A stretch of 38,458 nucleotides of DNA from an uncultured bacterium (GCA_964509395.1 CAZDYT010000001.1:1-38458), one strand, 5' to 3'; numbered from the stretch's first letter, positions 791-38,458 are shown. Notes: generated by a model from the sequence alone, not told the origin. Numbers and translations are program-made.

Positions 791-2637
791 TCGGCGGTGT
801 CGTCTTCCGCGATCCCGCACGACCGGCGCCGGACTCTCTCTTGCAAGCTATGGCGCGCCGGATTGCCGGCGTGCGGCAGCCGGTGTGCGCCAGTCGAGGG
901 CATGTCGGGTTCTTCTCGTGCATCGAGCCAGGAGGTTTGGATTTGACGGAGCGGGTCTGGGCGCTCGCCGACCTGGATCTCACAAACCTGCCAGAACTGC
1001 ACGCCCTGGCCGCTCGTGGCGATGGCCGCTCGGACAGGCTCCTGACGACGCTCTATAGAACGTACGGCCCCGCCTTCATCGCGAGGCTCCGGGGGGCCTT
1101 TGCCCTGGCCCTCTGGGACCGTCGGTTCCATCGGCTTCTGCTGGCGGTCGACCGCTTCGGGGTCAAGCGGCTCTACTACGTGAGGACCCCGGAAGGCTTT
1201 ACCTTCGCATCCCGGCCGAGCCCCCTTCTCGCACTGCCAGAACTGTCGGCCGAAGTCGATCCCACGGCGGTGTACCAATACCTGAACTTCGGCTTCGTCC
1301 CCGCCCCCTACTCAGCCTTTGCCCGAGTTCGGCGGCTTCCGCCCGGCCACACCCTCGTGCTCCGGAACGCGGAGCCGACGATCGCGCGCTATTGGGATCT
1401 GGCGTATCCCGAACGGCCAGTCGGAGTCCGTGAGGCGGCCGCCGCGACATTTCGAATGGTCGAAGATGCGGTGGCCGTGTCCCTCCACGGAGCTGCGGCA
1501 AAGGAGACCGGCGCCTTCCTGAGCGGTGGGACCGACAGCAGCACTATCGTCGGTCTCATGACGAAGACAACCGGAGAGCGCGTCCACGCGTTCTCGATCG
1601 GCTTCCGGGAGCCTCGCTACAACGAGCTCCACTACGCCACGCTGACGGCCCGGCACTTTGCCGCGGCGCACGGGACCGCGATACTCACCCCGGAAAGGGC
1701 CCTGTCCACATTGCCGCGCCTCATTGAGGCGCATGACGAGCCGTTCGGAAACGACTCGTCGGTCGCGACGTATGCGTGCGCGCAACTGGCTCGCGACCGC
1801 GGGATGACTCGGTTGCTGGGTGGGGACGGGGGTGATGAGCTGTTCGGGGGCAACGAGCGTTACCGGACGGATCGGATCCTTGTGGCGTACCAGCGGATTC
1901 CCGGCGGGCTCCGGCGTTCAATTCTCGAGCCACTGTTAGCCTGGCTCCCCGATGGGGACGCTTCCCTGCTCGGCCGGGCTCAGCGCTATGTGCACCGGGC
2001 CAATCTCCCAACCCCCCGCCGGTTCTACTTCCATGAGTTCTTCATGGGCCAGGATGGCTTCCGGCTCCTCACGCCCGAGTTTGCCCGGATGGTGGATCGC
2101 GAGGCCCCCTGGAAGGTCGCCCAGCAGCATTTAGACTCGGCGCAAGCGACCAGTGAGCTGAACCGACTGCTCTACCTGGACTTGAAGTTGACCATCGGGG
2201 ACGGCGACCTCTTGAAGGTGACGCGCGCGGCCGAGCTCGCGGGAATTGATGTCCGGTTCCCCATGCTTGATCATTTGTTGGCGGAGTTCACCGGCACCCT
2301 GCCGGCGTGCTACAAAGTCAGGCGCTTCGAGAAGCGGTATCTCTTCAAACGCGCTTTCCGAAACCTCATACCCGCCGAAGTCCTCGCCAAACGCAAACAC
2401 GGTTTTGGCGTGCCCGTGAGCGCGTGGCTCAAGAGTGATCCCGGGTTCCGCCAGCTCCTTCGTGAGAGCCTGCTCTCACCGGGCGCCCACGTGCAGAAAT
2501 ATCTCCGGCAGGAGGGCATTCGCGACCTCGTGCGGCTACACGAAGCCGATGGCACACCATACTACGGAAGCCTCCTGTGGATACTGTTGATGCTCGAGCT
2601 CTGGCACCGTCAGCACGCGAATGGAGTGGGTGTCTGA
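781..2637 (+). CDS. Asparagine synthetase (AsnB)-family amidoligase with degenerate N-terminal glutaminase domain
   Basis: Track ORF 757..2637. The best start is ATG 781 (MRLIGGVVF), which aligns to MCGIAGV of the paralogs with Cys replaced by Arg and overlaps the upstream stop by 10 nt. PP-loop AFLSGGTDSSTIVG is present. C-terminal KHGFGVPVSAW and LLWILLMLELW are shared with the paralogs at 20701 and 24412. Confidence 0.85.
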   Translation: MRLIGGVVFRDPARPAPDSLLQAMARRIAGVRQPVCASRGHVGFFSCIEPGGLDLTERVWALADLDLTNLPELHALAARGDGRSDRLLTTLYRTYGPAFIARLRGAFALALWDRRFHRLLLAVDRFGVKRLYYVRTPEGFTFASRPSPLLALPELSAEVDPTAVYQYLNFGFVPAPYSAFARVRRLPPGHTLVLRNAEPTIARYWDLAYPERPVGVREAAAATFRMVEDAVAVSLHGAAAKETGAFLSGGTDSSTIVGLMTKTTGERVHAFSIGFREPRYNELHYATLTARHFAAAHGTAILTPERALSTLPRLIEAHDEPFGNDSSVATYACAQLARDRGMTRLLGGDGGDELFGGNERYRTDRILVAYQRIPGGLRRSILEPLLAWLPDGDASLLGRAQRYVHRANLPTPRRFYFHEFFMGQDGFRLLTPEFARMVDREAPWKVAQQHLDSAQATSELNRLLYLDLKLTIGDGDLLKVTRAAELAGIDVRFPMLDHLLAEFTGTLPACYKVRRFEKRYLFKRAFRNLIPAEVLAKRKHGFGVPVSAWLKSDPGFRQLLRESLLSPGAHVQKYLRQEGIRDLVRLHEADGTPYYGSLLWILLMLELWHRQHANGVGV

Positions 2638-3674
2638 TGAGAGGCCGGGCGCGAGCGACCATCGTTCGAGCTTTGGCCGCCGGACTCTACAAATCGGGAG
2701 CGGTCGGCGGCCTGTCGAGATTTTCAGACTATGCGGCTTTAGGAGGTCCGGGAGGATTGTCGTATCGCCGGTATCCGGCTTTCCCGATCCTCGTGTACCA
2801 CCGAGTCGATGATAATCGTGACCCATTCTTCCCGTCGGTCCCGACCGAGGTTTTCGAGCGGCAGATGCGCTTCGTCGCTCGCACCTACCGCGTGCTCATC
2901 TTGGAAGAACTGGTGGAGCGGATGCGCAGTGGCGGACTCCCGCGAAACGCTCTCGCGATCACTTTCGATGACGGCTATCGGGATGTCTTGACGCATGTCG
3001 CACCGATCCTGACGAAATACCGAGCGCCCGCCAGCGTGTTCCTCGCAACGGGCTTCATCGGTACCGCCGAGGTTCCGTGGTTCGATCGGCTCGCGATGGC
3101 GTTCAAGCTGACGAAGGCCACGTTCATCGCCACACCGTGGGGCGAAACGATGAGCCTGGCTAGTGACGGAGACCGAGTCCGCGGCCTTCAGCGAACGCTC
3201 GACGCGCTCAAGCGCCTTCAGGACGAAGAGCTGCGGCGCACTGTGGACGGGTTGCTCGAAAGTCTCGGGGTAACGGAGCAGCGGAACTTTAAGGGCCTCA
3301 TGCTCGGTTGGGACGATGTTCACGCTCTGATGGGGCTGGGGTTCGCCATCGGTGCCCACACGGTGAACCACCCGATCCTCTCGCGCGTCAGCCTCGAGCG
3401 GGTTCGGTCGGAGATCGAGGGCTCCCGCGCGATGATCGAGTCAGCGTGCGGCCACAGGCCTCGCGCTTTTGCCTACCCAAACGGGCAATCCGGAGACTAC
3501 ACCGCGGCAGTAGTGCGCCTGGTCCGCGAGGCGGGGTTCACGTGCGCGGTCAGCGCGCGCTTCGGCATCAACACTCGAAGGACATCGCCGTGGGAACTCC
3601 GGCGAGGGCAACCGTGGGAACATGACGTCCCGACTTTCGCGCTGAAGCTCGCGTGGTATCGGATGGCGCTGTAG
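2637..3674 (+). CDS. Polysaccharide deacetylase (NodB/CE4 family), of the type found in PEP-CTERM loci
   Basis: NodB motifs ITFDDGYRD and GAHTVNHP are present, along with FPILVYHRVDD. ATG 2637 overlaps the upstream TGA by 1 nt. An alternative in-frame start at 2577 would overlap the upstream CDS by 61 nt. Confidence 0.88.
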   Translation: MRGRARATIVRALAAGLYKSGAVGGLSRFSDYAALGGPGGLSYRRYPAFPILVYHRVDDNRDPFFPSVPTEVFERQMRFVARTYRVLILEELVERMRSGGLPRNALAITFDDGYRDVLTHVAPILTKYRAPASVFLATGFIGTAEVPWFDRLAMAFKLTKATFIATPWGETMSLASDGDRVRGLQRTLDALKRLQDEELRRTVDGLLESLGVTEQRNFKGLMLGWDDVHALMGLGFAIGAHTVNHPILSRVSLERVRSEIEGSRAMIESACGHRPRAFAYPNGQSGDYTAAVVRLVREAGFTCAVSARFGINTRRTSPWELRRGQPWEHDVPTFALKLAWYRMAL

Positions 3675-3683
3675 CGGGACCTG

Positions 3684-4724: not shown

Positions 4725-4744
4725 GGCGAAGGGAGAGATCCCCG

Positions 4745-4978: not shown

Positions 4979-4979
4979 C

Positions 4980-6755: not shown

Positions 6756-6770
6756 GGGGGCGAGAACGCG

Positions 6771-6941: not shown

Positions 6942-6945
6942 GCCC

Positions 6946-23690: not shown

Positions 23691-24409
23691 TGGGGATCCT
23701 GGACCGGCGACAGAAGTGCCGCAAACTGATCCAGCGATACTACCGGGGCCCATCGCGCGAGGAGCTCCTCGATTCGACGGCCGCCGCACTCGCCCGACCC
23801 TCGGACGTCCTTCTGGACGCCGGATGCGGTGCTGACTTCCCGCTCCTCTCGCGCTACGGCCCGAAGGTTGCGTTCGCAGTCGGCGTCGACTTATGCTCTC
23901 CGGCCCCGAACGTGCTCGGGCGCACGAAGGTGATCGTCGGCAACCTCGAATCCCTCCCGATACGGAGTCAGAGCGTCGATCTGATTGTCTCGCGCTCTGT
24001 CGTCGAGCACCTCGATCACCCCGTCGAGACCTTTAAAGAATTCGGCAGGGTGCTCCGCTCCGGTGGACGACTCGTCTTCACGACGCCGAACAAATATTAC
24101 TACTCGTGTCTCGTTGCTCTGCTCACCCCTGGGTGGCTCAAAGACGTGTATTTCCAGAAGGTGTTTGGCGGCGATGCGTACGCTCACTTTCCCGTCCGCT
24201 ATCGCGCGAACACGGCTCGGGCCTCCCGGGACCTTGCTCGCGTCACCGGCTTCGAGCTGACCCGCACCGAGGCTATCGAGCACTACCCGTACTACCTGAT
24301 GTTCTCGCCTGCCCTGTTCCGCCTGGGGATCCTTTACGACGAGATCGTCCGGGCGCTCGGGTTCACTCAGCTTCAGAGCACGTGGCTCGTGGTGATGGAG
24401 AAGAAGTAG
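23687..24409 (+). CDS. Class I SAM-dependent methyltransferase
   Basis: ATGA overlap with the upstream stop. Motif I VLLDAGCGADFPLL, then SVDLIVSRSVVEHLDHP and GGRLVFTTPN. Confidence 0.85.
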   Translation: MMGILDRRQKCRKLIQRYYRGPSREELLDSTAAALARPSDVLLDAGCGADFPLLSRYGPKVAFAVGVDLCSPAPNVLGRTKVIVGNLESLPIRSQSVDLIVSRSVVEHLDHPVETFKEFGRVLRSGGRLVFTTPNKYYYSCLVALLTPGWLKDVYFQKVFGGDAYAHFPVRYRANTARASRDLARVTGFELTRTEAIEHYPYYLMFSPALFRLGILYDEIVRALGFTQLQSTWLVVMEKK

Positions 24410-24411
24410 GG

Positions 24412-26328: not shown

Positions 26329-27062
26329 CGATCTTCGAGGCAGAGTGGCGCGCCCGTTTCGAACGCTTTGGCCGCAGCTACGCGGAGGAGCATTTTGTCT
26401 CGGGCTGGTCCCCCGCGGGGCTCGCGCGCCGTTTCAGCCTGTTCGAGCAGTTGATTGGCCATCTCGCGCTCCCAGTGGGCTCCCGCGTCCTGGAGCTAGG
26501 ATGCGGGGCCGGCACCTACGTGCGTCGCCTGGCAGAACTGGGCCATTCTGTGGTCGGCATCGATTATGCGCTCCCGAGCCTCGGCCGCGCCGTTGAAGCC
26601 GATCCGGGCCGAAAAGGCCGATACCTGGCGGCGGATGGTCACGAACTGCCGTTTACGCCCGAGTGCTTCGATCTGGTCGTCTGCATCGGGGTGCTCCAGG
26701 CGGTAAGCCGACCCGGGCCGTTGCTGGACGAGATGATCCGAGTCCTGCGCCCGGAGGGGCTCCTCGTGGTGGAGGCGCTCAACGCACTGGAAATTCCGGC
26801 GCTCGCCCGGCGACTCTCGGAGATCGCCGGAGGCCGGCGCTCACGGGTCCGGCATGACTCGCCGTTTGAAGTTTGCCGGGCGCTTGAGCAACGGAAGATC
26901 CGTCACCTGCGGCGTGTTGGCGTCTACCTTCTGCCGCGCCGCTTCCCGCGGCTAGGGCGGATCCTGGACAGTCGGGGGCTGATCCGGCTCATCGAGATGG
27001 TTCCCGGCGGCTCGCTCGTGATGGCCCACGCGTTCTGGTACGTGGGGCGGAAGTCGTCATGA
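26325..27062 (+). CDS. Class I SAM-dependent methyltransferase
   Basis: ATGA overlap with the upstream stop. Motif I VLELGCGAGTYVRRL, then VVGIDYA, FDLVVCIGVLQAV and EGLLVVEALN. Confidence 0.85.
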   Translation: MTIFEAEWRARFERFGRSYAEEHFVSGWSPAGLARRFSLFEQLIGHLALPVGSRVLELGCGAGTYVRRLAELGHSVVGIDYALPSLGRAVEADPGRKGRYLAADGHELPFTPECFDLVVCIGVLQAVSRPGPLLDEMIRVLRPEGLLVVEALNALEIPALARRLSEIAGGRRSRVRHDSPFEVCRALEQRKIRHLRRVGVYLLPRRFPRLGRILDSRGLIRLIEMVPGGSLVMAHAFWYVGRKSS

Positions 27063-28240
27063 CGATTCTGCATATCCTGGATCACTCGGTCCCGCTCGCC
27101 AGCGGCTACAGCTTCCGCAGCCGGAACCTGGTCAGGTTCCAGCAACAGGTCGGACTGCGGCCGGTCGTCCTTACCTCCCCCCGACAGGGGAGTGAGCGGG
27201 ATGGTGCCGACACGCTGGAGGGCGTCCGCCATTACCGGACTGGCCCTGTCGGAGGGCGGCTATCGTGGCTCCGCGAGGTCCGACAGATGGGACGCATGGC
27301 GATGCGCATCGCGGCGGTCGCCCGTAGCGAGCGCGCCTCGTTCCTCCATGCGCACTCGCCGCTGCTCAACGGTCTCCCGGCGCTCTGGGCGGGCCGCCGC
27401 CTCGGACTTCCGGTCATCTACGAGGCCCGGGCGTTTTGGGAAGACGCCGCCGTCGACCATGGAACGGTTCGCCAGGGATCGCTTCGCTACCGCCTCATCC
27501 GGCTCGTGGAGACCTGGCTCTTCCGCAAGGCCGACCGGGTCGTCACGATCTGCGAGGGAATGCGCAAGGAGATCGTGCGGCGGGGCGTGGACGCGGCGCG
27601 CGTCGCCGTCGTTCCCAACGGAGTCGACGTGGACGTGTTTCGGCCACGTTCCCGGAGCGAGAGCCTGGCCAAGAGGATCGGGCTGAACGGAGGTCCAGTC
27701 TTCGGCTTCATCGGGTCCTTCTACCGCTACGAGGGACTCCGCTTCTTGATCGACTCGATCCCGGCGATCCGCGAGGCTCTCGTCGGCGCCAGGGTGCTGC
27801 TGGTCGGGGGAGGGGAAGAAGATGCCGCGCTCCGGACCGCGGCGGCGTGTCTGGGCGATACCGTGGTTTTCGTTGGGCAGGTGCCCCACCAGCGGGTCAG
27901 CGAGTTCCTTTCGGTGATGGACGTCTTCGTGTGCCCGCGCCGACGGATCCGCCTGACCGAGTTGGTGACACCTCTCAAGCCGCTGGAGGCGATGGCCATG
28001 GGGAGGCCGGTGTTGGCCAGCGACGTGGGAGGGCACCGGGAGTTGATCCGGCACGAGGCTACCGGTCTGCTCTTCCCCGCGGAGAGTCAGCGGGCCTTCG
28101 TCGCCCAGGCGACGCGCGTCGGCGCCGATCCGCTTCTTCGGAAGGCGCTCGGCGAGACTGCCCGCAGTTACGTGCTGGGAGAACGCAGTTGGGACCGAGT
28201 GGTCCCGATGTACTTGCGAATCTACTCAGAACTTGCATGA
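27059..28240 (+). CDS. Glycosyltransferase family 4 (PEP-CTERM/exosortase-A-associated type)
   Basis: ATGA overlap with the upstream stop. N-terminus MTILHILDHSVPLASGYSFRSRNLVRFQQQVGLRPVVLTSPRQ resembles the exosortase-associated GT family I recall. GT4 motif PLKPLEAMAMGRPVLASDVGGHRELI is present. Confidence 0.88.
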   Translation: MTILHILDHSVPLASGYSFRSRNLVRFQQQVGLRPVVLTSPRQGSERDGADTLEGVRHYRTGPVGGRLSWLREVRQMGRMAMRIAAVARSERASFLHAHSPLLNGLPALWAGRRLGLPVIYEARAFWEDAAVDHGTVRQGSLRYRLIRLVETWLFRKADRVVTICEGMRKEIVRRGVDAARVAVVPNGVDVDVFRPRSRSESLAKRIGLNGGPVFGFIGSFYRYEGLRFLIDSIPAIREALVGARVLLVGGGEEDAALRTAAACLGDTVVFVGQVPHQRVSEFLSVMDVFVCPRRRIRLTELVTPLKPLEAMAMGRPVLASDVGGHRELIRHEATGLLFPAESQRAFVAQATRVGADPLLRKALGETARSYVLGERSWDRVVPMYLRIYSELA

Positions 28241-29486
28241 GGTGACCGTGCGAGTCCTCGTACTGAGCTCGGTCTTTCCGAATCCGAGACAGCCGGCTCT
28301 GGGGGTGTTCATCCGGCAGCGCGCGCGGCTGGTGGCCCGCCACTGCGAGCTCAGGGTGGTGGCGCCGATACCCTGGTTCCCGCTCAACGGCCTGATCCGC
28401 GGCCCTCACGTGACAGGGGTTCCGGCGTTCGAGATGCAGCAGGGCCTCTCTGTGTATCATCCCCGGTTCTTCTGCGTTCCCCGGTATCTCAAGTGGCTCG
28501 ACGCGCTGCTCTACGCAGGCTCACTCCTTGCCTTCGTGGTTCGCCTCCGCCGGGAGTTTCCGTTCGATCTGATCGACGCCCACTTCGTGTATCCGGATGG
28601 GGCGGCCGCCGTCATGTTGGGCAAGGTGCTTCGCATCCCGGTCCTCATAACGGTGCGCGGGAGCATCGTCCGGCTCTCAGGCTACCCCCTTCATCGTCCC
28701 CAGATCGGCTGGGCACTTCGGCGGGCCAGCGGCATTGTGGCGGTCAGCCAGTCACTCAAACACGTCGCGATGCAGCTGGAGATCCCAGCACACGAGATTC
28801 GCGTGATTCCCAATGGCGTGGACACCAAGCAATTTCATCCCTCGGACCGTGCCGCGGCTCGAGCGGCGTGCGGGCTTGCGGTCGACCGAACGATCCTCCT
28901 CGCCGTCGGCGGGATCTACGATGGCAAGGGACACCACCTTGTCGTAGACGCGCTTGCGGGTCTTGTCACTCGCCACCCCAACCTACTCTACGTCATCGTT
29001 GGTGCAGAGCGCCCGGGGGACAGCTACCGAAGGAATCTCGAACGGATGATTGCGGCCCGCGGTCTCGTGGAGCATGTTTTCATCGCCGGCCCGCGCCCTC
29101 ATGACGAGCTCCCCCGGTGGTATGCGGCAGCTGATCTCTTCTGCCTGGCGACGCGCTCGGAAGGGTGGGCGAATGTTCTGCTCGAGGCCATGGCCAGCGG
29201 AGTTCCTGTGGTGACGACAGACGCAGGCGGGAATGCCGAGATCGTGCGCGACGGGCGTGACGGGCTCCTCGTCCGATTCGGCGACGCGCGCGGGCTGGCC
29301 TCGGCCATCGAGGAGGCACTGGGCCGGCAGTGGGACCGTGACGCCACGGTCGCCTACGCCCGGGGCTTGAGCTGGGAGCGCGCTGCAGAGACTGTGCTCG
29401 AGGAGTTCCGGCGTCTCGTGCCCGTAGCCCCGAGCGAGGTTCGCGTGGGGCAGGCCATCGACTACTCACCCCGAAACAACGCATGA
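28233..29486 (+). CDS. Glycosyltransferase family 4
   Basis: VRVLVLSSVFPNP N-terminus. The start is uncertain among TTG 28233, GTG 28242 and GTG 28248. GT4 motif GWANVLLEAMASGVPVVTTDAGGNAEIV is present. Confidence 0.85.
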   Translation: MHEVTVRVLVLSSVFPNPRQPALGVFIRQRARLVARHCELRVVAPIPWFPLNGLIRGPHVTGVPAFEMQQGLSVYHPRFFCVPRYLKWLDALLYAGSLLAFVVRLRREFPFDLIDAHFVYPDGAAAVMLGKVLRIPVLITVRGSIVRLSGYPLHRPQIGWALRRASGIVAVSQSLKHVAMQLEIPAHEIRVIPNGVDTKQFHPSDRAAARAACGLAVDRTILLAVGGIYDGKGHHLVVDALAGLVTRHPNLLYVIVGAERPGDSYRRNLERMIAARGLVEHVFIAGPRPHDELPRWYAAADLFCLATRSEGWANVLLEAMASGVPVVTTDAGGNAEIVRDGRDGLLVRFGDARGLASAIEEALGRQWDRDATVAYARGLSWERAAETVLEEFRRLVPVAPSEVRVGQAIDYSPRNNA

Positions 29487-30655
29487 TTGCGCGTCTCTTG
29501 ACGAACAGGCTCTTCCGGACCGAGGCGCGCCGTGCGCTGCTTCGTGACGCCCTCGGATGGCATGGCCCCGCCCTCTCCACGCGCAGCCATCTCGAAGAGG
29601 TCGCTCGATGGATCCTCCGGGCGCAGGCCGCAACCCCCGACGACGGTGTTTCGGGCGGGTACTCATTTGAGGATGGCTGGATCGCTTCCTACCCAGAAAC
29701 CACCGGTTACATCATTCCGACCCTGCTGACCTACGCGGACTACTCGGGCGACCGGGAATACGCAAGGCGGAGCCTCGCCATGGCCGAATGGGAACTCACC
29801 GTGCAGCACCCGGGTGGCGGGTTCCCCGGTCATTTCGTCGATCGGCCACACCCGCCGGTCGTGTTCAATACCGGACAGGTCATCTTCGGACTCCTCGCGG
29901 CGCACGAGGCGTCGAAAGACCGGCGGTACCTGGAGGGGGCCGTCCGCGCGGCCAACTGGCTGGTGCGCGTCCAGGACGATGATGGGGCGTGGCGGCGTCA
30001 CGAGTACCGGGACACACTGCACGCCTATAACACGCGCACCGCCTGGGCGTTGGTCGAGGTCGGACTCGTGTCGGGCGACGACAGATTCGTCTTCGCGGGT
30101 AGACGGAACCTGGACTGGGCGCTGTCGCAGCAGGAGCCCGACGGCTGGTTCCGCCACTGTGGGTTCTACGCTGGAGAGGATGCCTTTCTGCACACGATTG
30201 CCTACACCACTCAAGGACTTCTTGAGGGCGGACTCCGGCTCGACCGGTTGGATCACGTCTCCGCGGCGTCGCGTGCCTGCCGGGCGGTCCTCGCGCATCT
30301 CACAGCGGAGGGTTTCATACCCGGCCGGTTCGGACCTGGATGGAAACCCACGGCTCGGTACTCCTGCTTGACGGGGAACGCCCAGATCGCGGCCCAGTGG
30401 TTTCGCCTCTATGACATCTTGCGAGTTCCGGCGTTCCTTGATGGTGGCCGGCGCGCCACCGGTTTTCTCAAGAGGCTGCAGGACTGCCGCACCGAGAACC
30501 TGAACATCAGGGGAGCCGTGAAGGGCTCGCATCCGATCTGGGGGCGGTACGCGTTCGGAAGCTACCCAAACTGGGCCGCAAAGTTCTTCATGGACGCCCT
30601 CCTGATGGAGGAGGCCGTCCTCGCCGGTGACGTGACATGCATCCGCTGCTGGTGA
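29483..30655 (+). CDS. Predicted alpha/alpha-toroid protein with QW-type (prenyltransferase/terpene-cyclase-like) repeats; function unknown
   Basis: ATGA overlap with the upstream stop. QW-like motifs are VQDDDGAWRRHEY and QQEPDGWFRH, plus RWILRAQAATPDDGVSGGY. The repeated helical pattern includes ANWLV and LDWAL. Confidence 0.6.
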   Translation: MIARLLTNRLFRTEARRALLRDALGWHGPALSTRSHLEEVARWILRAQAATPDDGVSGGYSFEDGWIASYPETTGYIIPTLLTYADYSGDREYARRSLAMAEWELTVQHPGGGFPGHFVDRPHPPVVFNTGQVIFGLLAAHEASKDRRYLEGAVRAANWLVRVQDDDGAWRRHEYRDTLHAYNTRTAWALVEVGLVSGDDRFVFAGRRNLDWALSQQEPDGWFRHCGFYAGEDAFLHTIAYTTQGLLEGGLRLDRLDHVSAASRACRAVLAHLTAEGFIPGRFGPGWKPTARYSCLTGNAQIAAQWFRLYDILRVPAFLDGGRRATGFLKRLQDCRTENLNIRGAVKGSHPIWGRYAFGSYPNWAAKFFMDALLMEEAVLAGDVTCIRCW

Positions 30656-32001
30656 AGAAGATCCTGTTCCCGGCGCATGAGTGGCTACTCGGCAAGCGGA
30701 CGCTGGCCCGGCTGTTCGACCTCGATCGGACGCAGTGGTTGGCGCCTGCTGCGCTGGAGGAGTACCGGTTCGAAAGGCTCAGGCGACTGCTCGAGTATGC
30801 GTACGCCTATGTTCCCTATTACCGGCGTGTTTTTGACGAGCACGAAGTTCCGCCTCGTCGCGTGCAATCCTTCTCCGACCTTCGCCGCGTGCCCTATCTG
30901 ACCCGGGAGATGGTACGTGCCCACCAAGGAGAGCTCAGGCCTCGCGTGCCGGTTCGTGGTGCGCGACCATTCAGCACGGGCGGCTCCACTGGAAGCCCGG
31001 TAACGGTCTTCATCGACATGGAACGCATGGCGTTCTCGGACGCCTCGCGCCTTCGGGCTCACCGCTGGTTCGGGTTAGAGATCGGCGTGCGCGAGATCGC
31101 GCTGTGGGGCTCTGTGCGAGACTTGAGTCGCCAGGGAGCCCTCCGCGTGCTGCGTGATCGGCTGTTGAACTATCGAACCCTGTCCGCCTTCGACTTGGGC
31201 GAGCGGGCTTTGGGCGCGTATGCTCGGCTGCTTGACCGCTTCCGACCTGCGAAAATATACGGCTACGCCAGTGCGATCACACTGCTCAGTCAGTATCTGA
31301 GTCGCCGAGGGCTCACCCGGGCCGCGCGGTCCCTCCGGGCGGTGTTCTCGACCGCAGAGCCGCTGTTCGGTTATCAGCGAGCTCTGATCCGAGAGGGGCT
31401 CGGGTGCGTGGTAGCCGAGGAATATGGGTCACGCGATGCGGGCTTGATCGCCAACGAGTGCCCAGCGGGAGGCCTCCACGTGAACGCGGAGGGTATTCAC
31501 GCCGAGGTGCTCGGTCCGAGCGGCGAGGCCGGTGAACTCGTGATTACCAATTTCGACACCCCTGCGATGCCGATCATTCGCTACCGCACGCAGGACATCG
31601 GGGTTCTTGGCCGTGCCGGATGCCGCTGTGGCCGAACGCTACCAGTCCTCGCTGGTATCCAGGGTCGAAGCACTGACTTCCTTGTGACTCCTGATGGTCG
31701 GGTGCTTCACGCGCTGGCAGCGATTTACATTCTCCGCGAGATTCCTGGAGTCCAGGAGTTTCAGATTCTGCAGGAATCACTGAACCGCGTCATCGTCCAC
31801 GTCGTCCCGTGCGTTACGTTCGGGGAGGGCCAGTTGGGCGCGATCAGGGCAGCGATGCAGGGTCTGATGGGCCCCGGCGTTCTCGTCGATGTCGTGAGCA
31901 CAAGCTGCATCGATCGGCCGGTATCCGGGAAGCATCGATATGTAATCTCTGCGGTGGCCGACGCGTACTTGGGCGCGATGCTGGAAAGAGTGGCGCGATG
32001 A
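30637..32001 (+). CDS. CapK / phenylacetate-CoA ligase (PaaK) / F390-synthetase-like adenylate-forming enzyme
   Basis: FSTGGSTGSPVTVF phosphate-binding loop, IYGYASAI, AEEYGSRDAG, and a C-terminal SGKHRYVIS. ATG 30637 overlaps the upstream CDS by 19 nt. An alternative GTG at 30652 would give a GTGA overlap. Confidence 0.8.
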   Translation: MHPLLVKKILFPAHEWLLGKRTLARLFDLDRTQWLAPAALEEYRFERLRRLLEYAYAYVPYYRRVFDEHEVPPRRVQSFSDLRRVPYLTREMVRAHQGELRPRVPVRGARPFSTGGSTGSPVTVFIDMERMAFSDASRLRAHRWFGLEIGVREIALWGSVRDLSRQGALRVLRDRLLNYRTLSAFDLGERALGAYARLLDRFRPAKIYGYASAITLLSQYLSRRGLTRAARSLRAVFSTAEPLFGYQRALIREGLGCVVAEEYGSRDAGLIANECPAGGLHVNAEGIHAEVLGPSGEAGELVITNFDTPAMPIIRYRTQDIGVLGRAGCRCGRTLPVLAGIQGRSTDFLVTPDGRVLHALAAIYILREIPGVQEFQILQESLNRVIVHVVPCVTFGEGQLGAIRAAMQGLMGPGVLVDVVSTSCIDRPVSGKHRYVISAVADAYLGAMLERVAR

Positions 32002-32804
32002 GCCGAGTCGTACTCCTCACTCGACCGTCGAACTGGCAGGGGGTGCTCACACTTCGAGAGTGCTCGCGGCAAGGTCTTGCCGTGTCGGGCGTGATCCTCG
32101 AGCCGAAGGGGTTAGGCGAGAGGCTGAGAAGGCTGTGGAAGTTCCTAAAGCTCAACGGTCCGGCAGATACGGCACGCAAAATCTGGCACACGGTGCTGTC
32201 GGATAGACGCTTCCGACGGGAAGTGAAGCGGGTCTATCGAGACGATGTGCCATCCAGCGTCCGAGACATTGGATCTCTTCTCGGCATGCCGGTTTACGAA
32301 GTCGGTTCCCATAACGACCAGCAGTGTGAGCAGCTTCTGGAAGAGCTTTCGGCCGACTTCATATTGCTGGCCGGCACGTGCATCATCAAGCCGCATATCC
32401 TCAAACAAGCACGACTCGGATGTCTCAACGCCCATACAGGGTGGCTTCCGGACTATCGCGGCGTTCACGCCAACCTGTGGTCGCTCCTTGAGGGGGGAAG
32501 GCTCGGTGTCACGGTCCATTATGTGGATCCTGGTGTTGACACGGGGCCGATTCTCCTTCGTGAGGAGCTGCGGGTCGTCCCGGGAGATACCCTCGAGACC
32601 ATCGAGCTGCGGACCGCGGAGCTCTGCGCGCGAATGATGGTCGACACCATCAAGGCGATCGAGAACGGGGCGGCCGTTCCTTGCCCCCAGCGCTTGGGTG
32701 AGGGCCGCTGTTACCGGGCCCTTCCGTTTCGCAAGGAACAGGAGGTCCGTCGGCTTCTCAAACGGATGGCGCGGGCAGGCGTGGCTAATGGACAGGCGTC
32801 ATGA
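31998..32804 (+). CDS. Formyltransferase-fold protein (Fmt/ArnA N-terminal domain-like)
   Basis: ATGA overlap at 31998; the track ORF starting at 31809 carries an alternative-frame extension. The catalytic-triad context is CLNAHTGWLPDYRGVH (Asn..His) and VHYVDPGVDTGPIL (Asp). This aligns by eye to Fmt INVHGSLLPRWRG and DVGLDTGDML. Confidence 0.85.
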   Translation: MSRVVLLTRPSNWQGVLTLRECSRQGLAVSGVILEPKGLGERLRRLWKFLKLNGPADTARKIWHTVLSDRRFRREVKRVYRDDVPSSVRDIGSLLGMPVYEVGSHNDQQCEQLLEELSADFILLAGTCIIKPHILKQARLGCLNAHTGWLPDYRGVHANLWSLLEGGRLGVTVHYVDPGVDTGPILLREELRVVPGDTLETIELRTAELCARMMVDTIKAIENGAAVPCPQRLGEGRCYRALPFRKEQEVRRLLKRMARAGVANGQAS

Positions 32805-33820
32805 ATGTCTCTAGCTCTCCGCCGCCACAGTGGGACCGGATGGTCGCCGCACCATGCCAACTCACCGGTTTTGCGGCCGCCATGACGACTATGGGATACC
32901 ACCCCCTCTATCTCTTCGAGGGCGATCAGCGCGCCCTGGCGCTGGTAAGGGGATGGACCCGCGGAGTTCGACGTGTGATCGCGCGGGCCAATCTGTTCGC
33001 TGCTGGTGTGGACGGGGGCTTTGTCACACGGGCAGTGGAGGCCATGGCGCAGCTCGGTGTGTCCTACGTGAGAGTGGGGGATTCGATGTGGGGGCTCGGC
33101 AAGTCCGAAACGACGAACGCTTCGCACGGTGCGCGAACTACGGTCATCCAACGTCATACATTCGTTCTGGATCTGGCGCAGAGCGAGGAGATGCTGCTGA
33201 GGAACCAAGGACCCAGTGTGCGCACCTCAGTGCGAAAAGCCGAGAGGGCCGGCGTGGAGGTTCGGGAGATCACCACGAGCGCGGACCTCGAGGCGTACTG
33301 CGCGTTGGCGAGGGGGACCTCCGCTAGAGTCCGAAGCGTGAGCGCGTATACGGATTTCCCGACCAGCTTCTTCACGGAGTTGTTCAAGCGCATGACGGGA
33401 ACGGGGGCGGCAAAGTTTTACCTGGCTTGTATCGATGCTACCCCCGTGGCGGGAGCCATCTTTCTATGCTCGAAGGAAAGGATGCTGTATTTCGCGGGGG
33501 CCTCGACCCGTGACCGAGCGTACACGGCTCTTCAAGCGCCGACTGCCGTGCTCTGGCACGCGATTCGGGGGGCCAAGCGCCTCGGACTGAGCCGCTTCGA
33601 CTTCGGAGGTTGCACACCCACGGAGGATCCGCGGGATCCGCGCTATGGGGTGTACGCATTCAAGAGGCGGTGGGGAGGGGACCTGGAGACGTTCTACAAC
33701 CTCGAGGTTGTCGTGGCACCGGCGCTGGTATGGTTCCAGGACCGCGTGCTATCGCCTCTCTGGAACCGTGTGCATCCCTTCTACTTTAGGCTCCTTGAGC
33801 TCAGGAAGGCGCTCCCATGA
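32801..33820 (+). CDS. FemAB-family (aminoacyl-tRNA-dependent transferase-like) GNAT-fold protein, PEP-CTERM-system-associated type
   Basis: ATGA overlap with the upstream stop. 339 aa with SVRTSVRKAERAGVEVREI, FYLACIDATPVAGAIFL and FDFGGCTP...YAFKRRWGG. Confidence 0.8.
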   Translation: MNVSSSPPPQWDRMVAAPCQLTGFAAAMTTMGYHPLYLFEGDQRALALVRGWTRGVRRVIARANLFAAGVDGGFVTRAVEAMAQLGVSYVRVGDSMWGLGKSETTNASHGARTTVIQRHTFVLDLAQSEEMLLRNQGPSVRTSVRKAERAGVEVREITTSADLEAYCALARGTSARVRSVSAYTDFPTSFFTELFKRMTGTGAAKFYLACIDATPVAGAIFLCSKERMLYFAGASTRDRAYTALQAPTAVLWHAIRGAKRLGLSRFDFGGCTPTEDPRDPRYGVYAFKRRWGGDLETFYNLEVVVAPALVWFQDRVLSPLWNRVHPFYFRLLELRKALP

Positions 33821-35934
33821 TCGTTCTCCAGGGAGTCGTCTTCCTTCTAGCGGCCACCAGCGCCCTCGCCCTCGCAGCCGCGGTTCTCGCGCAGCGGGGT
33901 CCGAGGTCCGTTCACTGGAGTTTTGCGGCCGGAATGGTCGGGTTCGCCGTCGAGCAAATCGCTGGGTTCATGCTGGCAACGGTCACGGAGACGCCCGCTG
34001 ATCACTTGCTGTGGCTCAGAATCAGCGCGGTCGCGGGGCTCTTGCTGACGGTGCCCTGGACCGTATTTGTAGCCGCTCTGTGCCATCCGGGTGCGGAACG
34101 GATCGGTTTCGGTTGGCGCCTGGCGCTCGGCGCTCTGTGCGCCCTCGGCCTGGCCGGCGGAGTGGCTGTCCTCCTGTGGCCGAGCTTTGAGCTATTCGAT
34201 GCTCCGGGGAGGTTCCTGGCAGCGCGCCTGAGTGTGATCGGACATGCGGCCAGCGTCGTGCGGCTTTTAGCCACGGTCGGGATACTCGCCGCTCTGGAGG
34301 GGTGCCTCAGGCGGTCGAGGGGGACGACCCGGTGGCGTCTGAAATACCTCCTGCTCGGGCTGGGCGGGATCTTCCTCGTCCGGTTCTACCTGTTAAGCCA
34401 CGAGCTGCTTTTCAAGGTCGTGATGGTCGACTACTTGACCACGGGTGCGGTGACGCTTTTTGTAGGCAACTTGCTCGTGGGCGCTTCGCTCGCCCGGGGT
34501 CGACTCGCGATAGCCGATCTGACTGTGTCGCGTCAGCTGGTGTATCGGTCCATGGTCGTCGGTGTCCTCGGGTGCTATCTCCTCGTCATAGGCGCGCTCG
34601 GCTGGCTCCTCAACACGCTGGGCATCCGGCAGGAGCTCTTCTGGGGCTCGCTCGTCGTCTTCGTCTCGGCCCTGGGCCTGGCGGCGATCCTGCTTTCTGG
34701 CGAGGTCCGCCGGCGAGTGAAGCGCTTCGTCGGGCTCCACTTCTACCGGAGCAAGTACGACTATCAGGAACAGTGGTCGCGCTTCACGAAACGTCTTGGG
34801 TCGCGGCTCACCTTGGAGGCGCTTGCGCCAGAGCTGGTGAACGCAGCCTGTGAGGCGGTCGGGGCGACGTCCAGCGCCCTCTATCTGGCCGACGAGCGAG
34901 ACGGGCGGTACCACCTCGTAGCGGCGGCAGGGACCCGTGGGCTGCCGGCGAGGCTCGCGGCTGAGTCCCCCCTCCTTGCGCGAGTCAGGGCAGAGCAGAC
35001 ACCGGTGCGGTTGGGGAACGGTGGCGGGACGCTTGAGCGTCTCGGCGGACGCGCGCTGGCGGAAACTCTTCCTGACGCGGTGGTCGCGGTGCCGCTTCCC
35101 TGGCAGGGGCGGTTGACCGGCGTCATGCTGCTCGGGCCGGAGCGAACAGGCGCGACTTACGTTCCCGAGGACTTCGAGTTCCTCGCGACCGTGGGGGAGC
35201 AGGCTGCCGGGGCTCTCGTAACGGCGCAGCTCTCCGAGCGCCTGGTCCAATCTCGGGAGTTCGAAGCGTTCAACCGTCTAACGACGTTCGTGGTACACGA
35301 TCTGAAGAATTCGATCTCGGCGCTGTCCATGCTGAGTCAGAACGCCCTCGCTCACTTCGACGACCCCGAGTTCCAGCGTGACGCGGTTCGCACCCTGTCT
35401 CGGACGGTCGACCGGATGAAGGCCCTGCTGAGCCGCCTGAGCGCGACCCCGGTCCCCGACTCGGCACAGCGGCAGCTAGAGGTGGTCGACCTCGTGGCGC
35501 TTGTCCATGCGGCGACCGACCCGTTGGCGAAGAACCCGAAGGTGAGTCTCGTCACCGACCTCGCCCCGGTGGACGCGGTCCGTGGCGACCGTGATGCGCT
35601 CCTGCGGGTGATCCAGAACCTGGTCACCAACGCAGGGGAGGCGCTCAACGGGGAGGGCATCGTGACGGTGCGCACTTACGAGGACCAAGGGTGGACGGTC
35701 GTCTCGGTCGCAGACACGGGCTCCGGCATCCCGGAGGAGTTTCTCCGAAACTCGCTCTTCGTGCCGTTCCGCTCGACCAAGAAGGGCGGCTGGGGAATCG
35801 GCCTCTACCAGTCAAAGCTGATCGTCGAGGCGCACGGCGGGACGATGGAGGTGGCGAGCAAGCTCGGTGAGGGAACGACCTTTTGGGTTCGGCTCCCTGT
35901 CAAGCACTCGCGAAAGGGGGTGGCGAGCGCGTGA
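33817..35934 (+). CDS. prsK: PEP-CTERM system sensor histidine kinase
   Basis: ATGA overlap with the upstream stop. A ~300 aa polytopic N-terminus is followed by the HFYRSKYDYQEQWSRFTKRL motif typical of PrsK. Then come a GAF-like region, H-box FVVHDLKNSISAL, N-box VIQNLVTNAGEAL, G1 VADTGSGIP and G2 GGWGIGLYQSK. Confidence 0.9.
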   Translation: MIVLQGVVFLLAATSALALAAAVLAQRGPRSVHWSFAAGMVGFAVEQIAGFMLATVTETPADHLLWLRISAVAGLLLTVPWTVFVAALCHPGAERIGFGWRLALGALCALGLAGGVAVLLWPSFELFDAPGRFLAARLSVIGHAASVVRLLATVGILAALEGCLRRSRGTTRWRLKYLLLGLGGIFLVRFYLLSHELLFKVVMVDYLTTGAVTLFVGNLLVGASLARGRLAIADLTVSRQLVYRSMVVGVLGCYLLVIGALGWLLNTLGIRQELFWGSLVVFVSALGLAAILLSGEVRRRVKRFVGLHFYRSKYDYQEQWSRFTKRLGSRLTLEALAPELVNAACEAVGATSSALYLADERDGRYHLVAAAGTRGLPARLAAESPLLARVRAEQTPVRLGNGGGTLERLGGRALAETLPDAVVAVPLPWQGRLTGVMLLGPERTGATYVPEDFEFLATVGEQAAGALVTAQLSERLVQSREFEAFNRLTTFVVHDLKNSISALSMLSQNALAHFDDPEFQRDAVRTLSRTVDRMKALLSRLSATPVPDSAQRQLEVVDLVALVHAATDPLAKNPKVSLVTDLAPVDAVRGDRDALLRVIQNLVTNAGEALNGEGIVTVRTYEDQGWTVVSVADTGSGIPEEFLRNSLFVPFRSTKKGGWGIGLYQSKLIVEAHGGTMEVASKLGEGTTFWVRLPVKHSRKGVASA

Positions 35935-36791
35935 AGCTCATGACTGTGTGCGCTCCGTCGACTCGGTTGATCTGGTTGTCGCTCGGGCTTCCCGGCCTGG
36001 CGGCCGTCGGCCTCTACGGTCCCCTCTTCCCCGCGATCGTCCGCGAGTGGGCCGAATTCCCGAACCTCTCGCACGGCTTCGCGATCCCGCTCATCGCCGC
36101 CTACTTGCTCTGGGCACGCCGGGACCGCCTTCAGACCATCCTGCTGGAGCCGTCGCTCTGGGGGCTGCCCGTGGTGGTTGCGGGGCTTGGGGCGCTTGTC
36201 GTCGGGGTCCAGGGTGGCGAGCTTTTTCTGGCGCGGGTCTCGTTTCCCGTAACGCTGCTCGGGTTGACGCTGTTTCTGGCGGGCCCGAAGGTCATCCGGG
36301 AGACCTGGATCGGAATTGGATACCTCGCCTTCATGATCCCGCTCCCCTGGGTAACCGTGAAGCTGATTACCTACCGGTCGCGGATTTTGGACGCGGCGGC
36401 CTCCGCGGAGGCTCTAGGATGGCTGGGCGTGCCGGTCTACCGCGAGGGCGTGTTCCTCCACCTCCCGAACATAACGCTGGAGGTGGCCGACGTTTGCAGC
36501 AGTATCCCGGCCATCGCGGCACTCCTCGCTCTCGGCGTCGCCTACGCGTCGCTCGGGCGACGGCCGGTCGCGGCTCGCGTGGCGCTGATCGCTGCGGCCC
36601 TGCCGTTCGCGATCGCATCGAACATCATTCGCCTCACCACGACCGGCGCGGGCGTCTACTACATCGGGCCGTGGACCCTGAAGACCGCGTATCACATGTT
36701 CAACGGCACCGTGAACTTCCTGCTGACGTTCCTGTTGCTCCTGATCCTGGACGGCGCCCTGATGGGGCTCGCACGACGGTGGTCCCGATGA
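35931..36791 (+). CDS. xrtA: Exosortase (EpsH/Xrt family); XrtA-like by gene context
   Basis: GTG 35931 gives a GTGA overlap; ATG 35940 is an alternative. Motifs are FPNLSHGFAIPLIAAYLLW, a Cys motif LEVADVCSSIPAI, an Arg motif SNIIRLT and a His motif AYHMFNGTV. About 8 hydrophobic segments. Confidence 0.88.
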   Translation: MKLMTVCAPSTRLIWLSLGLPGLAAVGLYGPLFPAIVREWAEFPNLSHGFAIPLIAAYLLWARRDRLQTILLEPSLWGLPVVVAGLGALVVGVQGGELFLARVSFPVTLLGLTLFLAGPKVIRETWIGIGYLAFMIPLPWVTVKLITYRSRILDAAASAEALGWLGVPVYREGVFLHLPNITLEVADVCSSIPAIAALLALGVAYASLGRRPVAARVALIAAALPFAIASNIIRLTTTGAGVYYIGPWTLKTAYHMFNGTVNFLLTFLLLLILDGALMGLARRWSR

Positions 36792-37432
36792 CACGTCTCT
36801 CGTGGTTCAGTGCGGCAGCCTTGGCCCTTCTGGGGCTGGCCGGGGGGCTCTTTGCTGTGCCACGGGAAATCCGGCAGGTTCCGCTGGTCGCACCGCTGGA
36901 GACCATCCCAGGCGTCCTCCGGGACTGGCAGGCGGTGGACCAGGGGGAACCGGAGATGCTTCCCCAGGATCGGGCGGCGCCCGCCCAGCTCGTCCGCGCC
37001 TATCGCAACGGGACGCAGATGGTTTGGGTGACGGTGGGCTACTACCCGAGCCAAGTTCGGCAGCGGCCGGCGTCGCAGGAGCTGCTCTATCCGGGCCAGG
37101 GGTGGAGCGAGCTGACCGCGCGCTCGGTTACCGTCCCGCTTGACGGGATCTCCGGACGCGTGATCCCGGCCAATCTCGTCGTCATGCGAGGGCGGGGCCG
37201 CGAGTTTGCCGTCCTCTACTGGTACCAGGTCGGCGCGCGTACCGTGGCGAGTGACCACTGGAATCGCGCGCTCCTTCTGTACAACCGCCTCGTGAACCGG
37301 CGAGACGATGGGGCCCTGGTGCGGATCGCCTCGCCGGTTCCCGAGGGGACGGGGCCGGAGTCGGTCTTCGCTGAGCAGGTCGAGTTCGTTCAAGCGTTTT
37401 ACCCGGAGCTGCTGCGAAGGCTGCCGCACTAG
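36788..37432 (+). CDS. epsI: EpsI-family exosortase-associated protein
   Basis: ATGA overlap at 36788. N-terminal TM segment SWFSAAALALLGLAGGLF is followed by PLETIPGVLRDWQAVD, VWVTVGYYPSQ, YPGQGW and AVLYWYQVGARTV. The upstream 307 codons of track ORF 35867..37432 are Arg/Pro-rich alternative frame of the exosortase gene. Confidence 0.85.
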   Translation: MTRLSWFSAAALALLGLAGGLFAVPREIRQVPLVAPLETIPGVLRDWQAVDQGEPEMLPQDRAAPAQLVRAYRNGTQMVWVTVGYYPSQVRQRPASQELLYPGQGWSELTARSVTVPLDGISGRVIPANLVVMRGRGREFAVLYWYQVGARTVASDHWNRALLLYNRLVNRRDDGALVRIASPVPEGTGPESVFAEQVEFVQAFYPELLRRLPH

Positions 37433-37453: not shown

Positions 37454-38458
37454 ATGGCAATGAGGAAGCCCAAGCTCTTGATCGTGGAGGACGACGAAGC
37501 GATCCGCACCCAGCTCACGTACGCGTTGCGTGAGGATTATGCCCTCGCGTTCGCCGAGGATAGGGCTCAGGCGATCGCGGCGATCCAGGAGAGCCAGCCG
37601 GAGCTCGTGACTCTGGACCTTGGGCTGCCGCCCCGCTCCGACACGGCGGAGGAAGGTCTCAACGCGCTCGACGAGATTCTCCGACTCACCCCCACGGCGA
37701 AGGTCGTGGTCGTCACCGGAAACCAGGATCGCGAGAATGCCCTCCGAGCGGTTCAGCTGGGAGCGTTCGACTACTACCTGAAGCCGATCGACCTGTCGGA
37801 GTTCAAGGTGCTGCTTCGGCGGGCCGTCCGGCTCCAGGGACTCGAGGAGGAGACGGAGAGTTGGATCCACGATCAGGAAGAGGCGATCCGGTTCGAGGAG
37901 ATCCTCGGCAGCACGCCCGCGATGCGCGAGATCTTCAGGATCGTTCAGCGGGTGGCCAAGTCCGACGCGACGATCCTCGTCCAGGGGGAAAGCGGAACGG
38001 GGAAGGAGCTCGTCGCTCGAGCGATCCACCGGCGGAGCCGGCGCCACGGCGCCTCGTTCGTGGCGATCAACTGTGGGGCTATTCCGGAAACTCTCCTCGA
38101 GGCAGAGCTCTTCGGCCACGAGAGGGGCGCGTTCACCGGGGCCCACATCCAGCGCAAAGGCAGGTTCGAGCTGGCGGAGCGCGGCACGCTGTTCCTGGAT
38201 GAGATCGGCGAGCTGAGCCTGATGCTCCAAGTCAAGCTCCTTCGCTTCCTCCAGGAGCGCACCATCGAGCGAGTTGGGGGACGCGAGGCCATCCCCCTGG
38301 ATCTTCGCGTGATCGCTGCGACGAACCGGGACCTGAAGGTTCAGCTCCAGCAGGGACACTTCCGCGAGGACCTCTACTATCGCCTCTCGGTCATTATGGT
38401 CGAGTTGCCCCCCCTCCGAGAGCGAGGCGAGGACGTGATTCTCTTGGCCAATACGTTC
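37454..38458 (+). CDS. prsR: PEP-CTERM-box sigma-54-dependent response regulator (3' end outside window); not in the supplied ORF track
   Basis: My own translation begins [21 protein letters not shown]...[10 protein letters not shown] (receiver Asp)...[30 protein letters not shown]. The AAA+ domain shows Walker [15 protein letters not shown] and Walker [10 protein letters not shown]. The frame stays open to base 38458. GGGGAG lies upstream of ATG 37454. Confidence 0.93.

Follow-up and report, generated by a model that had tools for sequence, protein, structure and literature searches.

A toroid, CapK-like, formyltransferase and Fem-type gene block with one exchangeable position in an exosortase polysaccharide locus

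The stretch of DNA analysed here, called the window, comprises 38,458 nucleotides from an uncultured bacterium (GCA_964509395.1 CAZDYT010000001.1:1-38458). It is an XrtA/PEP-CTERM-type PrsK-PrsR exosortase polysaccharide locus, with TIGR02916, TIGR02602, TIGR02914, TIGR04063 and TIGR03097 all matched above cutoff. Four plus-strand open reading frames (ORFs) of this locus, encoding a toroid protein, a CapK-like adenylating enzyme, a short formyltransferase and a Fem-type transferase, are described below together with the loci in which their relatives occur (Table 1).

Four overlapping genes and their products

A first-pass annotation, made from the sequence alone, had described the four genes as overlap-linked and running straight into prsK. 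The ORFs and their junctions were confirmed, as was prsK. ATGA overlaps were read off the sequence at the junctions of the GT4 glycosyltransferase and toroid genes (29483-29486), the CapK-like and formyltransferase genes (31998), the formyltransferase and Fem-type genes (32801) and the Fem-type gene and prsK (33817). The toroid and CapK-like genes overlap by 19 nt, with the ATG of the latter at 30637 and the stop codon of the former at 30653-30655. Either 30637 or 30652 had been proposed as the CapK-like start. Position 30652 is an in-frame GTG at codon 6 and was set aside. The start was placed at 30637 because the N-terminus MHPxLV is kept across 28 homologs and the identical 19-nt overlap is shared by six loci besides the window (L001, L012, L036, L037, L105 and an 18448-bp contig). 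ATGA coupling was also present upstream of the toroid gene, at the methyltransferase/stp3 glycosyltransferase (27059) and stp3 glycosyltransferase/GT4 (28233) junctions. The overlap chain therefore runs from the upstream methyltransferase and glycosyltransferases through prsK as one long operon, and the four genes are not delimited by coupling. GC content was even throughout the region. The nearest relatives of all four proteins were found in Rokubacteria/Methylomirabilota, Binatia and related soil metagenome bins.

Table 1. Positions of features in the window, and contents of the position between the CapK-like and Fem-type genes (slot) in the window and related loci
Feature	Position or loci	Strand	Basis
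Toroid protein, predicted soluble (alpha/alpha)6 toroid of a carbohydrate-enzyme-like family, 390 aa	29483..30655	+	AF2 model and Foldseek
CapK-like protein, PaaK/CapK-type adenylate-forming enzyme, 454 aa	30637..32001	+	NCBIfam, Pfam and PDB matches
Short formyltransferase without Fmt-type C-terminal domain, 268 aa	31998..32804	+	Pfam, PDB and AF2
Fem-type double-GNAT transferase, subfamily apart from TIGR03019, 339 aa	32801..33820	+	Pfam FemAB, Acetyltransf_6
Slot: formyltransferase	window, L036, L037, L105, 18448-bp contig		
Slot: GNAT	L001		
Slot: Fem paralog, 40% identical	L047, L057, L080; partial L042, L046, L049, L050		
Slot: ATP-grasp and CehA/McbA-like metallohydrolase	L012, L084; partial L040, L051, L052		
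Slot: nothing	L043, L114		
GT4 glycosyltransferase, constant partner upstream of the CapK-like gene	28233..29486	+	Pfam Glycos_transf_1 (124 bits) and Glyco_transf_4
PrsK histidine kinase	33817..35934	+	TIGR02916, 433.7 bits (cutoff 300)
Exosortase, start codon uncertain	35883..36791	+	TIGR02602, 150.6 bits (cutoff 105.6)
EpsI, separate gene	36788..37432	+	Pfam DUF3485, 133 bits; TIGR02914, 97.4 bits (cutoff 42.8)
PrsR sigma-54 response regulator, cut by window end	37454..38458	+	TIGR02915, 468 bits over 335 residues
Polysaccharide deacetylase, candidate source of free sugar amine	2577..3674	+	PgaB/IcaB/NodB-type matches

Profile and structure searches bore out the families assigned to all four proteins in the first-pass annotation, and the motifs quoted there (STGGSTGSP, LNAHTGWLPDYRG, DPGVDTG, VQDDDGAW and QQEPDGWF) were all found in the window proteins. 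The AlphaFold2 (AF2) model of the toroid protein had a mean predicted local distance difference test (pLDDT) score of 94.5 and formed a single barrel of 12 helices in six hairpins. The best Foldseek match was the unsaturated glucuronyl hydrolase 3wiw of glycoside hydrolase family GH88 (template modelling (TM) score 0.72). Cellobiose and glucose 2-epimerases matched at TM 0.67-0.72, and E-values for the GH88 and epimerase matches were 1e-9 to 1e-7. Further neighbours were, in order, GH76, MmpH and GH127, with terpene cyclases later at TM 0.57. Sequence matches to solved structures were local or at repeat level only, covering 25-195 residues and never the whole protein. Pfam SQHop_cyclase_C was matched at 30.1 bits, barely over its cutoff of 26.1, and across residues 82-227 only. 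The curated squalene and oxidosqualene cyclase models gave 26.7 against 851 (TIGR03463), 22.7 against 322.7 (TIGR01787) and 17.7 against 431 (TIGR01507). No Pfam GH88, GlcNAc_2-epim (E<=0.01) or lyase match was above threshold for the protein, and relatives showed faint precomputed matches only. Inspection of the sequence found no signal peptide or hydrophobic N-terminus.

The toroid family is large, with more than 4,400 matches in bacteria and archaea. Thirty-seven columns, rich in Trp, Tyr, His and Glu, were invariant in 34 homologs at 38-73% identity. QW-like motifs are indeed present, but in the family consensus VQDxDGAW the second Asp of the DDD run, Asp166, is variable, and a DxDD motif is therefore not conserved. 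The modelled fold is that of carbohydrate-active (alpha/alpha)6 enzymes, not terpene cyclases.

The CapK-like protein is assigned to the PaaK/CapK branch of the ANL superfamily by its phosphate-binding loop and C-terminal Lys. The loop G115-G116-S117-T118-G119 and the C-terminal G431-K432 were invariant in 28 family sequences, and the loop aligned with that of PaaK. NCBIfam matches, which included PaaK and F390 synthetase, scored 106 (DVU1553_fam_AMP), 92, 80 and 66 bits against cutoffs of 300-700, placing the protein under the equivalog cutoffs of the PaaK, F390 synthetase and DVU_1553 models. Precomputed annotation gave Pfam PF27533 (CapK_C) on the protein and its homologs. Matches in the PDB were PaaK (4r1l, E=7.5e-23), AjiA1 and NatL2. 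The window methyltransferase at 26325-27062 best matched the DVU_1556 family, also under cutoff, and together with the DVU_1553 match this echoes the pairing of families named for neighbouring Desulfovibrio genes. Distant CapK-like paralogs (24-36% identity) stand in tandem arrays of two to four in L022, L024, L027, L028, L030 and L031, in bins of Zixibacteria, Dehalococcoidales, Ignavibacteriales and others.

The formyltransferase belongs, by domain score and catalytic triad, with the N10-formyl-tetrahydrofolate formyltransferases. Pfam Formyl_trans_N was matched at 86.6 bits (cutoff 26.1). Matches in the PDB were Escherichia coli Fmt (1.6e-18), PseJ (4.4e-17), ArnA and WbkC, and the AF2 model (pLDDT 92) matched the ArnA N-domain and Fmt at TM 0.64-0.68 in Foldseek. 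The Asn/His/Asp triad reported in the first-pass annotation was upheld, with N144, H146 and D181 invariant across 25 relatives and aligned with N108, H110 and D146 of E. coli Fmt ('NVHGSLLP', 'LDTG'). A helical insert of 40 residues (39-80) lies in the N-terminal half. The close family is tiny, with about 20 clusters at 45% identity or more. The protein scored under every equivalog cutoff, including that of Fmt (TIGR00460, 71.6 against 201.5), and no PF02911 (Formyl_trans_C) match was found in it. A role as Met-tRNA formyltransferase acting on the donor of the Fem-type enzyme is unlikely with this C-terminal domain absent.

The Fem-type protein is assigned to the FemABX-type transferases by its Pfam score, its double-GNAT size and a conserved lysine. 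Pfam FemAB was matched at 71.9 bits (cutoff 24) and Acetyltransf_6 at 69.4 bits. A profile of 19 relatives found Staphylococcus aureus FemX (7e-17) and Weissella viridescens FemX (8e-9), as well as FemA and an aminoacyl-tRNA-dependent peptide synthase. K288 was invariant in the 19 family sequences and aligned with Lys305 of W. viridescens FemX, the sole reactive residue in the FemX active site (PMC12945691). Membership of TIGR03019 was rejected on score, at 37.9 bits against 260.35; all 19 family members matched that model weakly (33-38 bits or similar; best E 9.9e-17).

Recurrence of the block and its exchangeable position

The survey covered 28 genome loci anchored on the CapK-like protein, 71 metagenome loci anchored on the Fem-type protein and contigs reached by exact protein look-ups, onto which the window proteins were mapped. 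In the high-GC loci L062 and L068 the ORF calls were noisy and could be used for a few genes only. The order toroid, CapK-like, formyltransferase, Fem-type recurred exactly in four other contigs (L036, L037, L105 and the 18448-bp contig, which is from ENA), so that the co-occurrence in other genomes on which the first-pass proposal depended was found. The formyltransferases compared in the recurring blocks were 45-85% identical, and L105 had the same flanks as the window. These recurrences are in uncultured soil bacteria. The formyltransferase and Fem-type genes also occurred as a pair on the short contigs L034 and L035. All relatives of the formyltransferase at 45% identity or more with a checked neighbourhood were located within a block of this type; a relative at 36% (L106) had an unrelated context.

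The commonest genome layout was GT4, CapK-like gene, prsK, exosortase and prsR with no toroid, formyltransferase or Fem-type gene (L007, L009, L010, L011, L015 and partial contigs). The CapK-like gene and its GT4 are therefore taken as the backbone of Rokubacteria-type loci. Homologs of the window GT4 (47-71% identity) stood directly upstream of the CapK-like gene or of the toroid-CapK pair in about 20 loci; its best NCBIfam match was TuaC-like and under cutoff. Between the CapK-like and Fem-type genes the content varied among formyltransferase, GNAT, Fem paralog, ATP-grasp with metallohydrolase, and nothing (Table 1). The contents of this slot are all amine-acylating or ligating chemistries. 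The idea of a fixed, coupled four-gene module was ruled out by the neighbourhood survey, in which each gene was separable. The block behaves as a mix-and-match cassette in which one position can be exchanged.

A more distant Fem group formed sets of Fem, second Fem, ATP-grasp and hydrolase genes with no toroid or CapK-like gene near (L062, L065, L066, L068 and L075). In L068, which has no G1-type toroid (G1 being the window toroid protein), a heparinase II/III-like protein with an alpha/alpha toroid and a beta-sandwich is encoded upstream at 2662-5022, between a glycosyltransferase and an asparagine-synthase gene.

The first-pass annotation had set the block apart from the classical exosortase-A accessory set. 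That set consists of an acyl-CoA ligase, a carrier protein, a pyridoxal phosphate (PLP) decarboxylase and hydrolases (NCBIfam TIGR03098-03101), and no match to its families was found among the window ORFs scanned. The proteins do differ, but the two are not alternatives. In L114 the toroid, CapK-like and Fem-type genes are followed in the same operon by a 342-aa ORF (faint Acetyltransf_1), a 94-aa ORF, DegT, an AMP-binding ligase and an ornithine/diaminopimelate decarboxylase. From this gene order the classical set and the toroid-CapK-Fem block coexist.

Four homologs of the toroid in distant loci were sampled from a subgroup of 403-413 aa at 43-45% identity, one of them from KSB1 (L108). In all four the toroid gene preceded, with a 4-nt overlap, a gene for a Formyl_trans_N protein of 266-296 aa (L108:6001-8117, L109:6001-8057, L110:6001-8081 and L111:6001-8039), and no CapK-like or Fem-type gene was near. 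Over the catalytic half, the formyltransferases of L108 and L109 shared 32-35% identity with that of the window (E ~1e-25); between themselves the two shared 44%. In the window the CapK-like gene sits between the two members of the pair. L109 (1-13212) also encodes two sulfotransferases, a heparinase II/III-like protein, GT4s, a UDP-sugar dehydrogenase, a deacetylase and a GT2, and looks like a pathway for a glycosaminoglycan-like sulfated polysaccharide. The toroid follows a HAD-GNAT fusion in a Woesearchaeota metagenome-assembled genome (MAG; L107) and in the related contig L004. Two genes upstream of this fusion and toroid, at L107:1949-4654, lies a UDP-glucose/GDP-mannose dehydrogenase gene with an intein (Pfam Intein_splicing). 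On plasmids of the cultured Halobellus limi and Haladaptatus sp. QDMS2 the toroid gene (DV707_RS16185 and P1M51_RS18515, respectively) is found among wecB, nucleotide-sugar dehydrogenase, sulfatase, alginate-lyase-family and glycosyltransferase genes. Glycan loci with nucleotide-sugar dehydrogenases thus house toroid homologs in bacteria, the Woesearchaeota MAG and haloarchaeal plasmids. The toroid is thus an enzyme of glycan pathways that recurs in association with N-acyl-transferring enzymes. The first-pass annotation saw no obvious role for it in such chemistry, which does not agree with its carbohydrate-active fold and its coupling to a formyltransferase in distant lineages.

Other genes of the exosortase locus

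The exosortase was not above the XrtA-specific TIGR03109 cutoff (144.3 against 208), and its best-scoring model was XrtW (189.6 against 425). With the TTG start at 35883 the gene would share 52 nt with prsK, and the true start is probably further downstream. The TIGR02915 cutoff of 502.6 applies to full-length PrsR, which the window end cuts short. The window also holds an O-antigen-ligase-like TIGR03097 protein above cutoff, three AsnB-like amidotransferases, methyltransferases, Wzm/Wzt, several GT4s and stp2/stp3 glycosyltransferases, of which stp3 is above cutoff. The three AsnB-like paralogs, of the 'XrtA system amidotransferase' type, lie at 757-2637, 20701-22572 and 24106-26328 and are all under the equivalog cutoff. 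The first aligns to the model only from position 87 on and may therefore lack part of its glutaminase end. Further decoration of the polymer by O-carbamoyl or O-acetyl groups is suggested by a NodU-like carbamoyltransferase and two SGNH/GDSL proteins at 4980-9575. Large Kelch beta-propeller proteins recur beside these loci (window 16855-19374, L105:15802-18801 and L114:18031-19170). A tail search of the window found no PEP-CTERM tail on its Kelch protein or on any other ORF.

Proposed function and comparison with known systems

Folds, catalytic residues, gene order and the conservation and variation of that order were observed; every substrate and the order of steps are inferred. On balance we lean towards a cytoplasmic cassette, the variable tailoring part of the exopolysaccharide operon of a Rokubacteria/Methylomirabilota-like soil bacterium, by which the repeat unit would gain N-formyl, N-acyl or aminoacyl substituents. 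Because all four products are soluble, their expected site of action is the cytoplasm, and their expected targets are repeat units linked to nucleotides or lipids. The Fem-type enzyme would most likely move an amino acid from aminoacyl-tRNA to a free sugar amine, for example that of a de-N-acetylated hexosamine. A possible source of this amine is the deacetylase of the locus, as the window ORFs that were scanned included no sugar aminotransferase. The formyltransferase would carry out folate-dependent N-formylation of an amine, which could be a sugar amine of the same class or the newly added alpha-amine. In sister loci a GNAT would N-acetylate instead, a Fem paralog would add a second aminoacyl group, or an ATP-grasp enzyme would carry out a ligation. 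The swapping of these enzymes at one position suggests a shared free amine as their target, which each would cap or extend. The toroid may be a sugar-binding enzyme of epimerase or hydrolase type and an evolutionary partner of this lineage of formyltransferases; its probable task is to prepare or recognise the sugar that receives the N-acyl group. The CapK-like protein is a candidate ATP-dependent carboxylate-adenylating ligase that would act independently, either to supply an acyl donor or to form an amide on a uronic acid. The data agree with the general first-pass idea that an amino sugar is N-formylated, N-acylated or aminoacylated, and the amine-acylating slot enzymes of the relatives reinforce it.

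Several observations weigh against this proposal. No member of any of the four subfamilies is characterised. The tRNA dependence of the Fem-type enzyme rests on homology and one conserved Lys, and searches of the window found no tRNA gene and no aminoacyl-tRNA synthetase gene; the lack of a sugar aminotransferase counts here too. Action of the formyltransferase on aminoacyl-tRNA cannot be assumed because the C-terminal tRNA-binding domain of Fmt is absent. Every gene is separable, with the CapK-like gene found without the others in most genome loci, the toroid and Fem-type genes adjacent without it in L039 and L045, and the toroid alone between GT4 genes in L003. No polysaccharide genes were present among the called neighbours of the toroid-formyltransferase pair in L110 and L111.

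The strongest alternative is that four independent tailoring enzymes merely share an operon, each altering a different feature of the polymer with no common substituent. It is credible but doubtful. Each gene is found without the others and the overlap chain spans the whole operon, yet the order and the 19-nt toroid/CapK junction are kept in seven loci with differing slot content, the checked formyltransferase relatives of at least 45% identity all lie within the block, and the slot enzymes share amine-acylating chemistry. A tRNA-free route, in which an acid or amino acid is activated as its adenylate by the CapK-like enzyme and passed to the sugar by the Fem-type enzyme, would suit the direct adjacency of the two genes in L043 and L114 and the presence of NatL2 and AjiA1 among the PDB relatives of the former. 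PaaK-like ligases of the NatL2/AjiA1 type form bonds without CoA. We think this route quite unlikely, as the CapK-like gene mostly occurs with no Fem gene at all, Fem genes occur without it (L039, L045 and L062-L068), and all solved relatives of the Fem-type enzyme are aminoacyl-tRNA-dependent, with the equivalent of FemX Lys305 invariant. Equally slim is the chance that the toroid is a degradative or trimming enzyme, a GH88-like hydrolase or lyase-type protein concerned with chain length or recycling and unrelated to N-acylation. Its best structural match and the nearby heparinase II/III or alginate-lyase-family genes in L109 and L113 point that way; the lack of a signal peptide, of a hydrophobic segment and of any Pfam GH88 or lyase match above threshold, and translational coupling to formyltransferases and to the HAD-GNAT fusion, point the other way. 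A terpene cyclase or prenyltransferase acting on a polyprenyl carrier or hopanoid-like lipid is suggested by the SQHop_cyclase_C score, the QW-like motifs, a local profile match to squalene-hopene cyclase (E=7e-8) and the NCBI name of the homologs ('prenyltransferase/squalene oxidase repeat-containing protein'), but is highly improbable and was rejected on the single 390-aa barrel, cyclase matches spanning just 70-146 residues, model scores of 18-27 bits against 322-851, the unconserved DxDD, structural neighbours that are glycoside hydrolases and sugar epimerases, and a context that is always glycan genes or a formyltransferase.

The tailoring cassette thus remains the reading we prefer. A bolder form of it, which we regard as rather unlikely, is that the toroid and its dedicated short formyltransferase are an undescribed two-enzyme unit spread across several phyla, joined in Rokubacteria-type exosortase loci with an aminoacyl-tRNA-dependent Fem-type transferase. 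The products would be N-formyl-aminoacyl side chains, with N-acetyl-aminoacyl or dipeptidyl side chains in sister loci, as a polysaccharide counterpart of peptidoglycan Fem bridges. Uncapped variants could give an amine acceptor for exosortase-mediated protein attachment.

None of the component superfamilies is new, and genes of Fem and CapK type have already been catalogued for exosortase loci. New here are the cassette with an exchangeable slot, a Fem subfamily of its own, a small and dedicated clade of formyltransferases, and the pairing of toroid with formyltransferase. Literature searches gave no papers on PEP-CTERM, FemAB and exosortase together or on CapK with phenylacetate-CoA ligase and polysaccharide, and nothing relevant on formyltransferase with exopolysaccharide and aminoacyl-tRNA; none of the papers listed linked exosortase to Fem. 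Nothing mechanistically surprising has emerged as yet. Soil and sludge bacteria commonly carry exosortase polysaccharide loci, but very little is known of the polymer chemistry or of what the accessory genes do. The block offers a testable picture, with one exchangeable N-capping or extension position next to a Fem-type transferase. Should the Fem-type enzyme indeed load a sugar from aminoacyl-tRNA, exopolysaccharides would join peptidoglycan and antibiotics as targets of tRNA-dependent aminoacylation. Independently of this, the toroid-formyltransferase pair offers a way into an uncharacterised family of thousands of members, with homologs in cultured haloarchaea open to genetics.

Compared with known systems, the toroid resembles GH88 and the sugar 2-epimerases of the AGE superfamily in its single (alpha/alpha)6 barrel of about 390 aa, but identity to them is just 9-15% and their catalytic residues cannot be mapped onto it. 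Class II terpene cyclases, in contrast, have two barrels, about 630 aa and a conserved DxDD. The CapK-like protein shares its P-loop, C-terminal Lys and PDB relatives with PaaK and the 'CapK' capsule proteins and differs from PaaK in its sub-equivalog scores. We know of no CapK-type enzyme with a defined substrate. In the biofilm polysaccharide cluster of Rubrivivax gelatinosus, which is shared with Thauera sp. MZ1T, CapK lies beside a GT4, an asparagine synthase and wzy, and the transposon screen in that work yielded an insertion in CapK (PMC3684757). The CapK-like gene and GT4 as locus backbone fit this cluster (PMC3684757).

The classical exosortase-A accessory set is likewise a tailoring set within XrtA-type loci, but of other proteins. 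The Fem-type protein resembles FemX, FemA and FemB in size (339 aa, with 335 aa for W. viridescens FemX) and in its Lys305 equivalent, and differs in its low identity, in lying in an exopolysaccharide operon and not a cell-wall context, and in its acceptor, presumably a sugar amine in place of the peptide-stem lysine. Like the TIGR03019 FemAB family, to our knowledge itself uncharacterised, it is a Fem-type protein of exosortase polysaccharide loci, but it forms a separate subfamily. Orf11, a Fem-like GNAT-fold enzyme, aminoacylates an amino sugar from Gly-tRNA in BD-12 biosynthesis (PMC12945691). The likeness is one of reaction type to that proposed here; Orf11 belongs to a small-molecule antibiotic pathway in Streptomyces. 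The formyltransferase shares its fold and Asn/His/Asp triad with the ArnA N-domain, PseJ, WbkC, VioF, FdtF and Met-tRNA formyltransferase, and differs from them in its helical insert, the lack of the Fmt C-terminal domain and its sub-equivalog scores. PseJ and PseH are alternatives in pseudaminic-acid-type pathways, and the exchange of the formyltransferase in the window for a GNAT in L001 mirrors that alternative.

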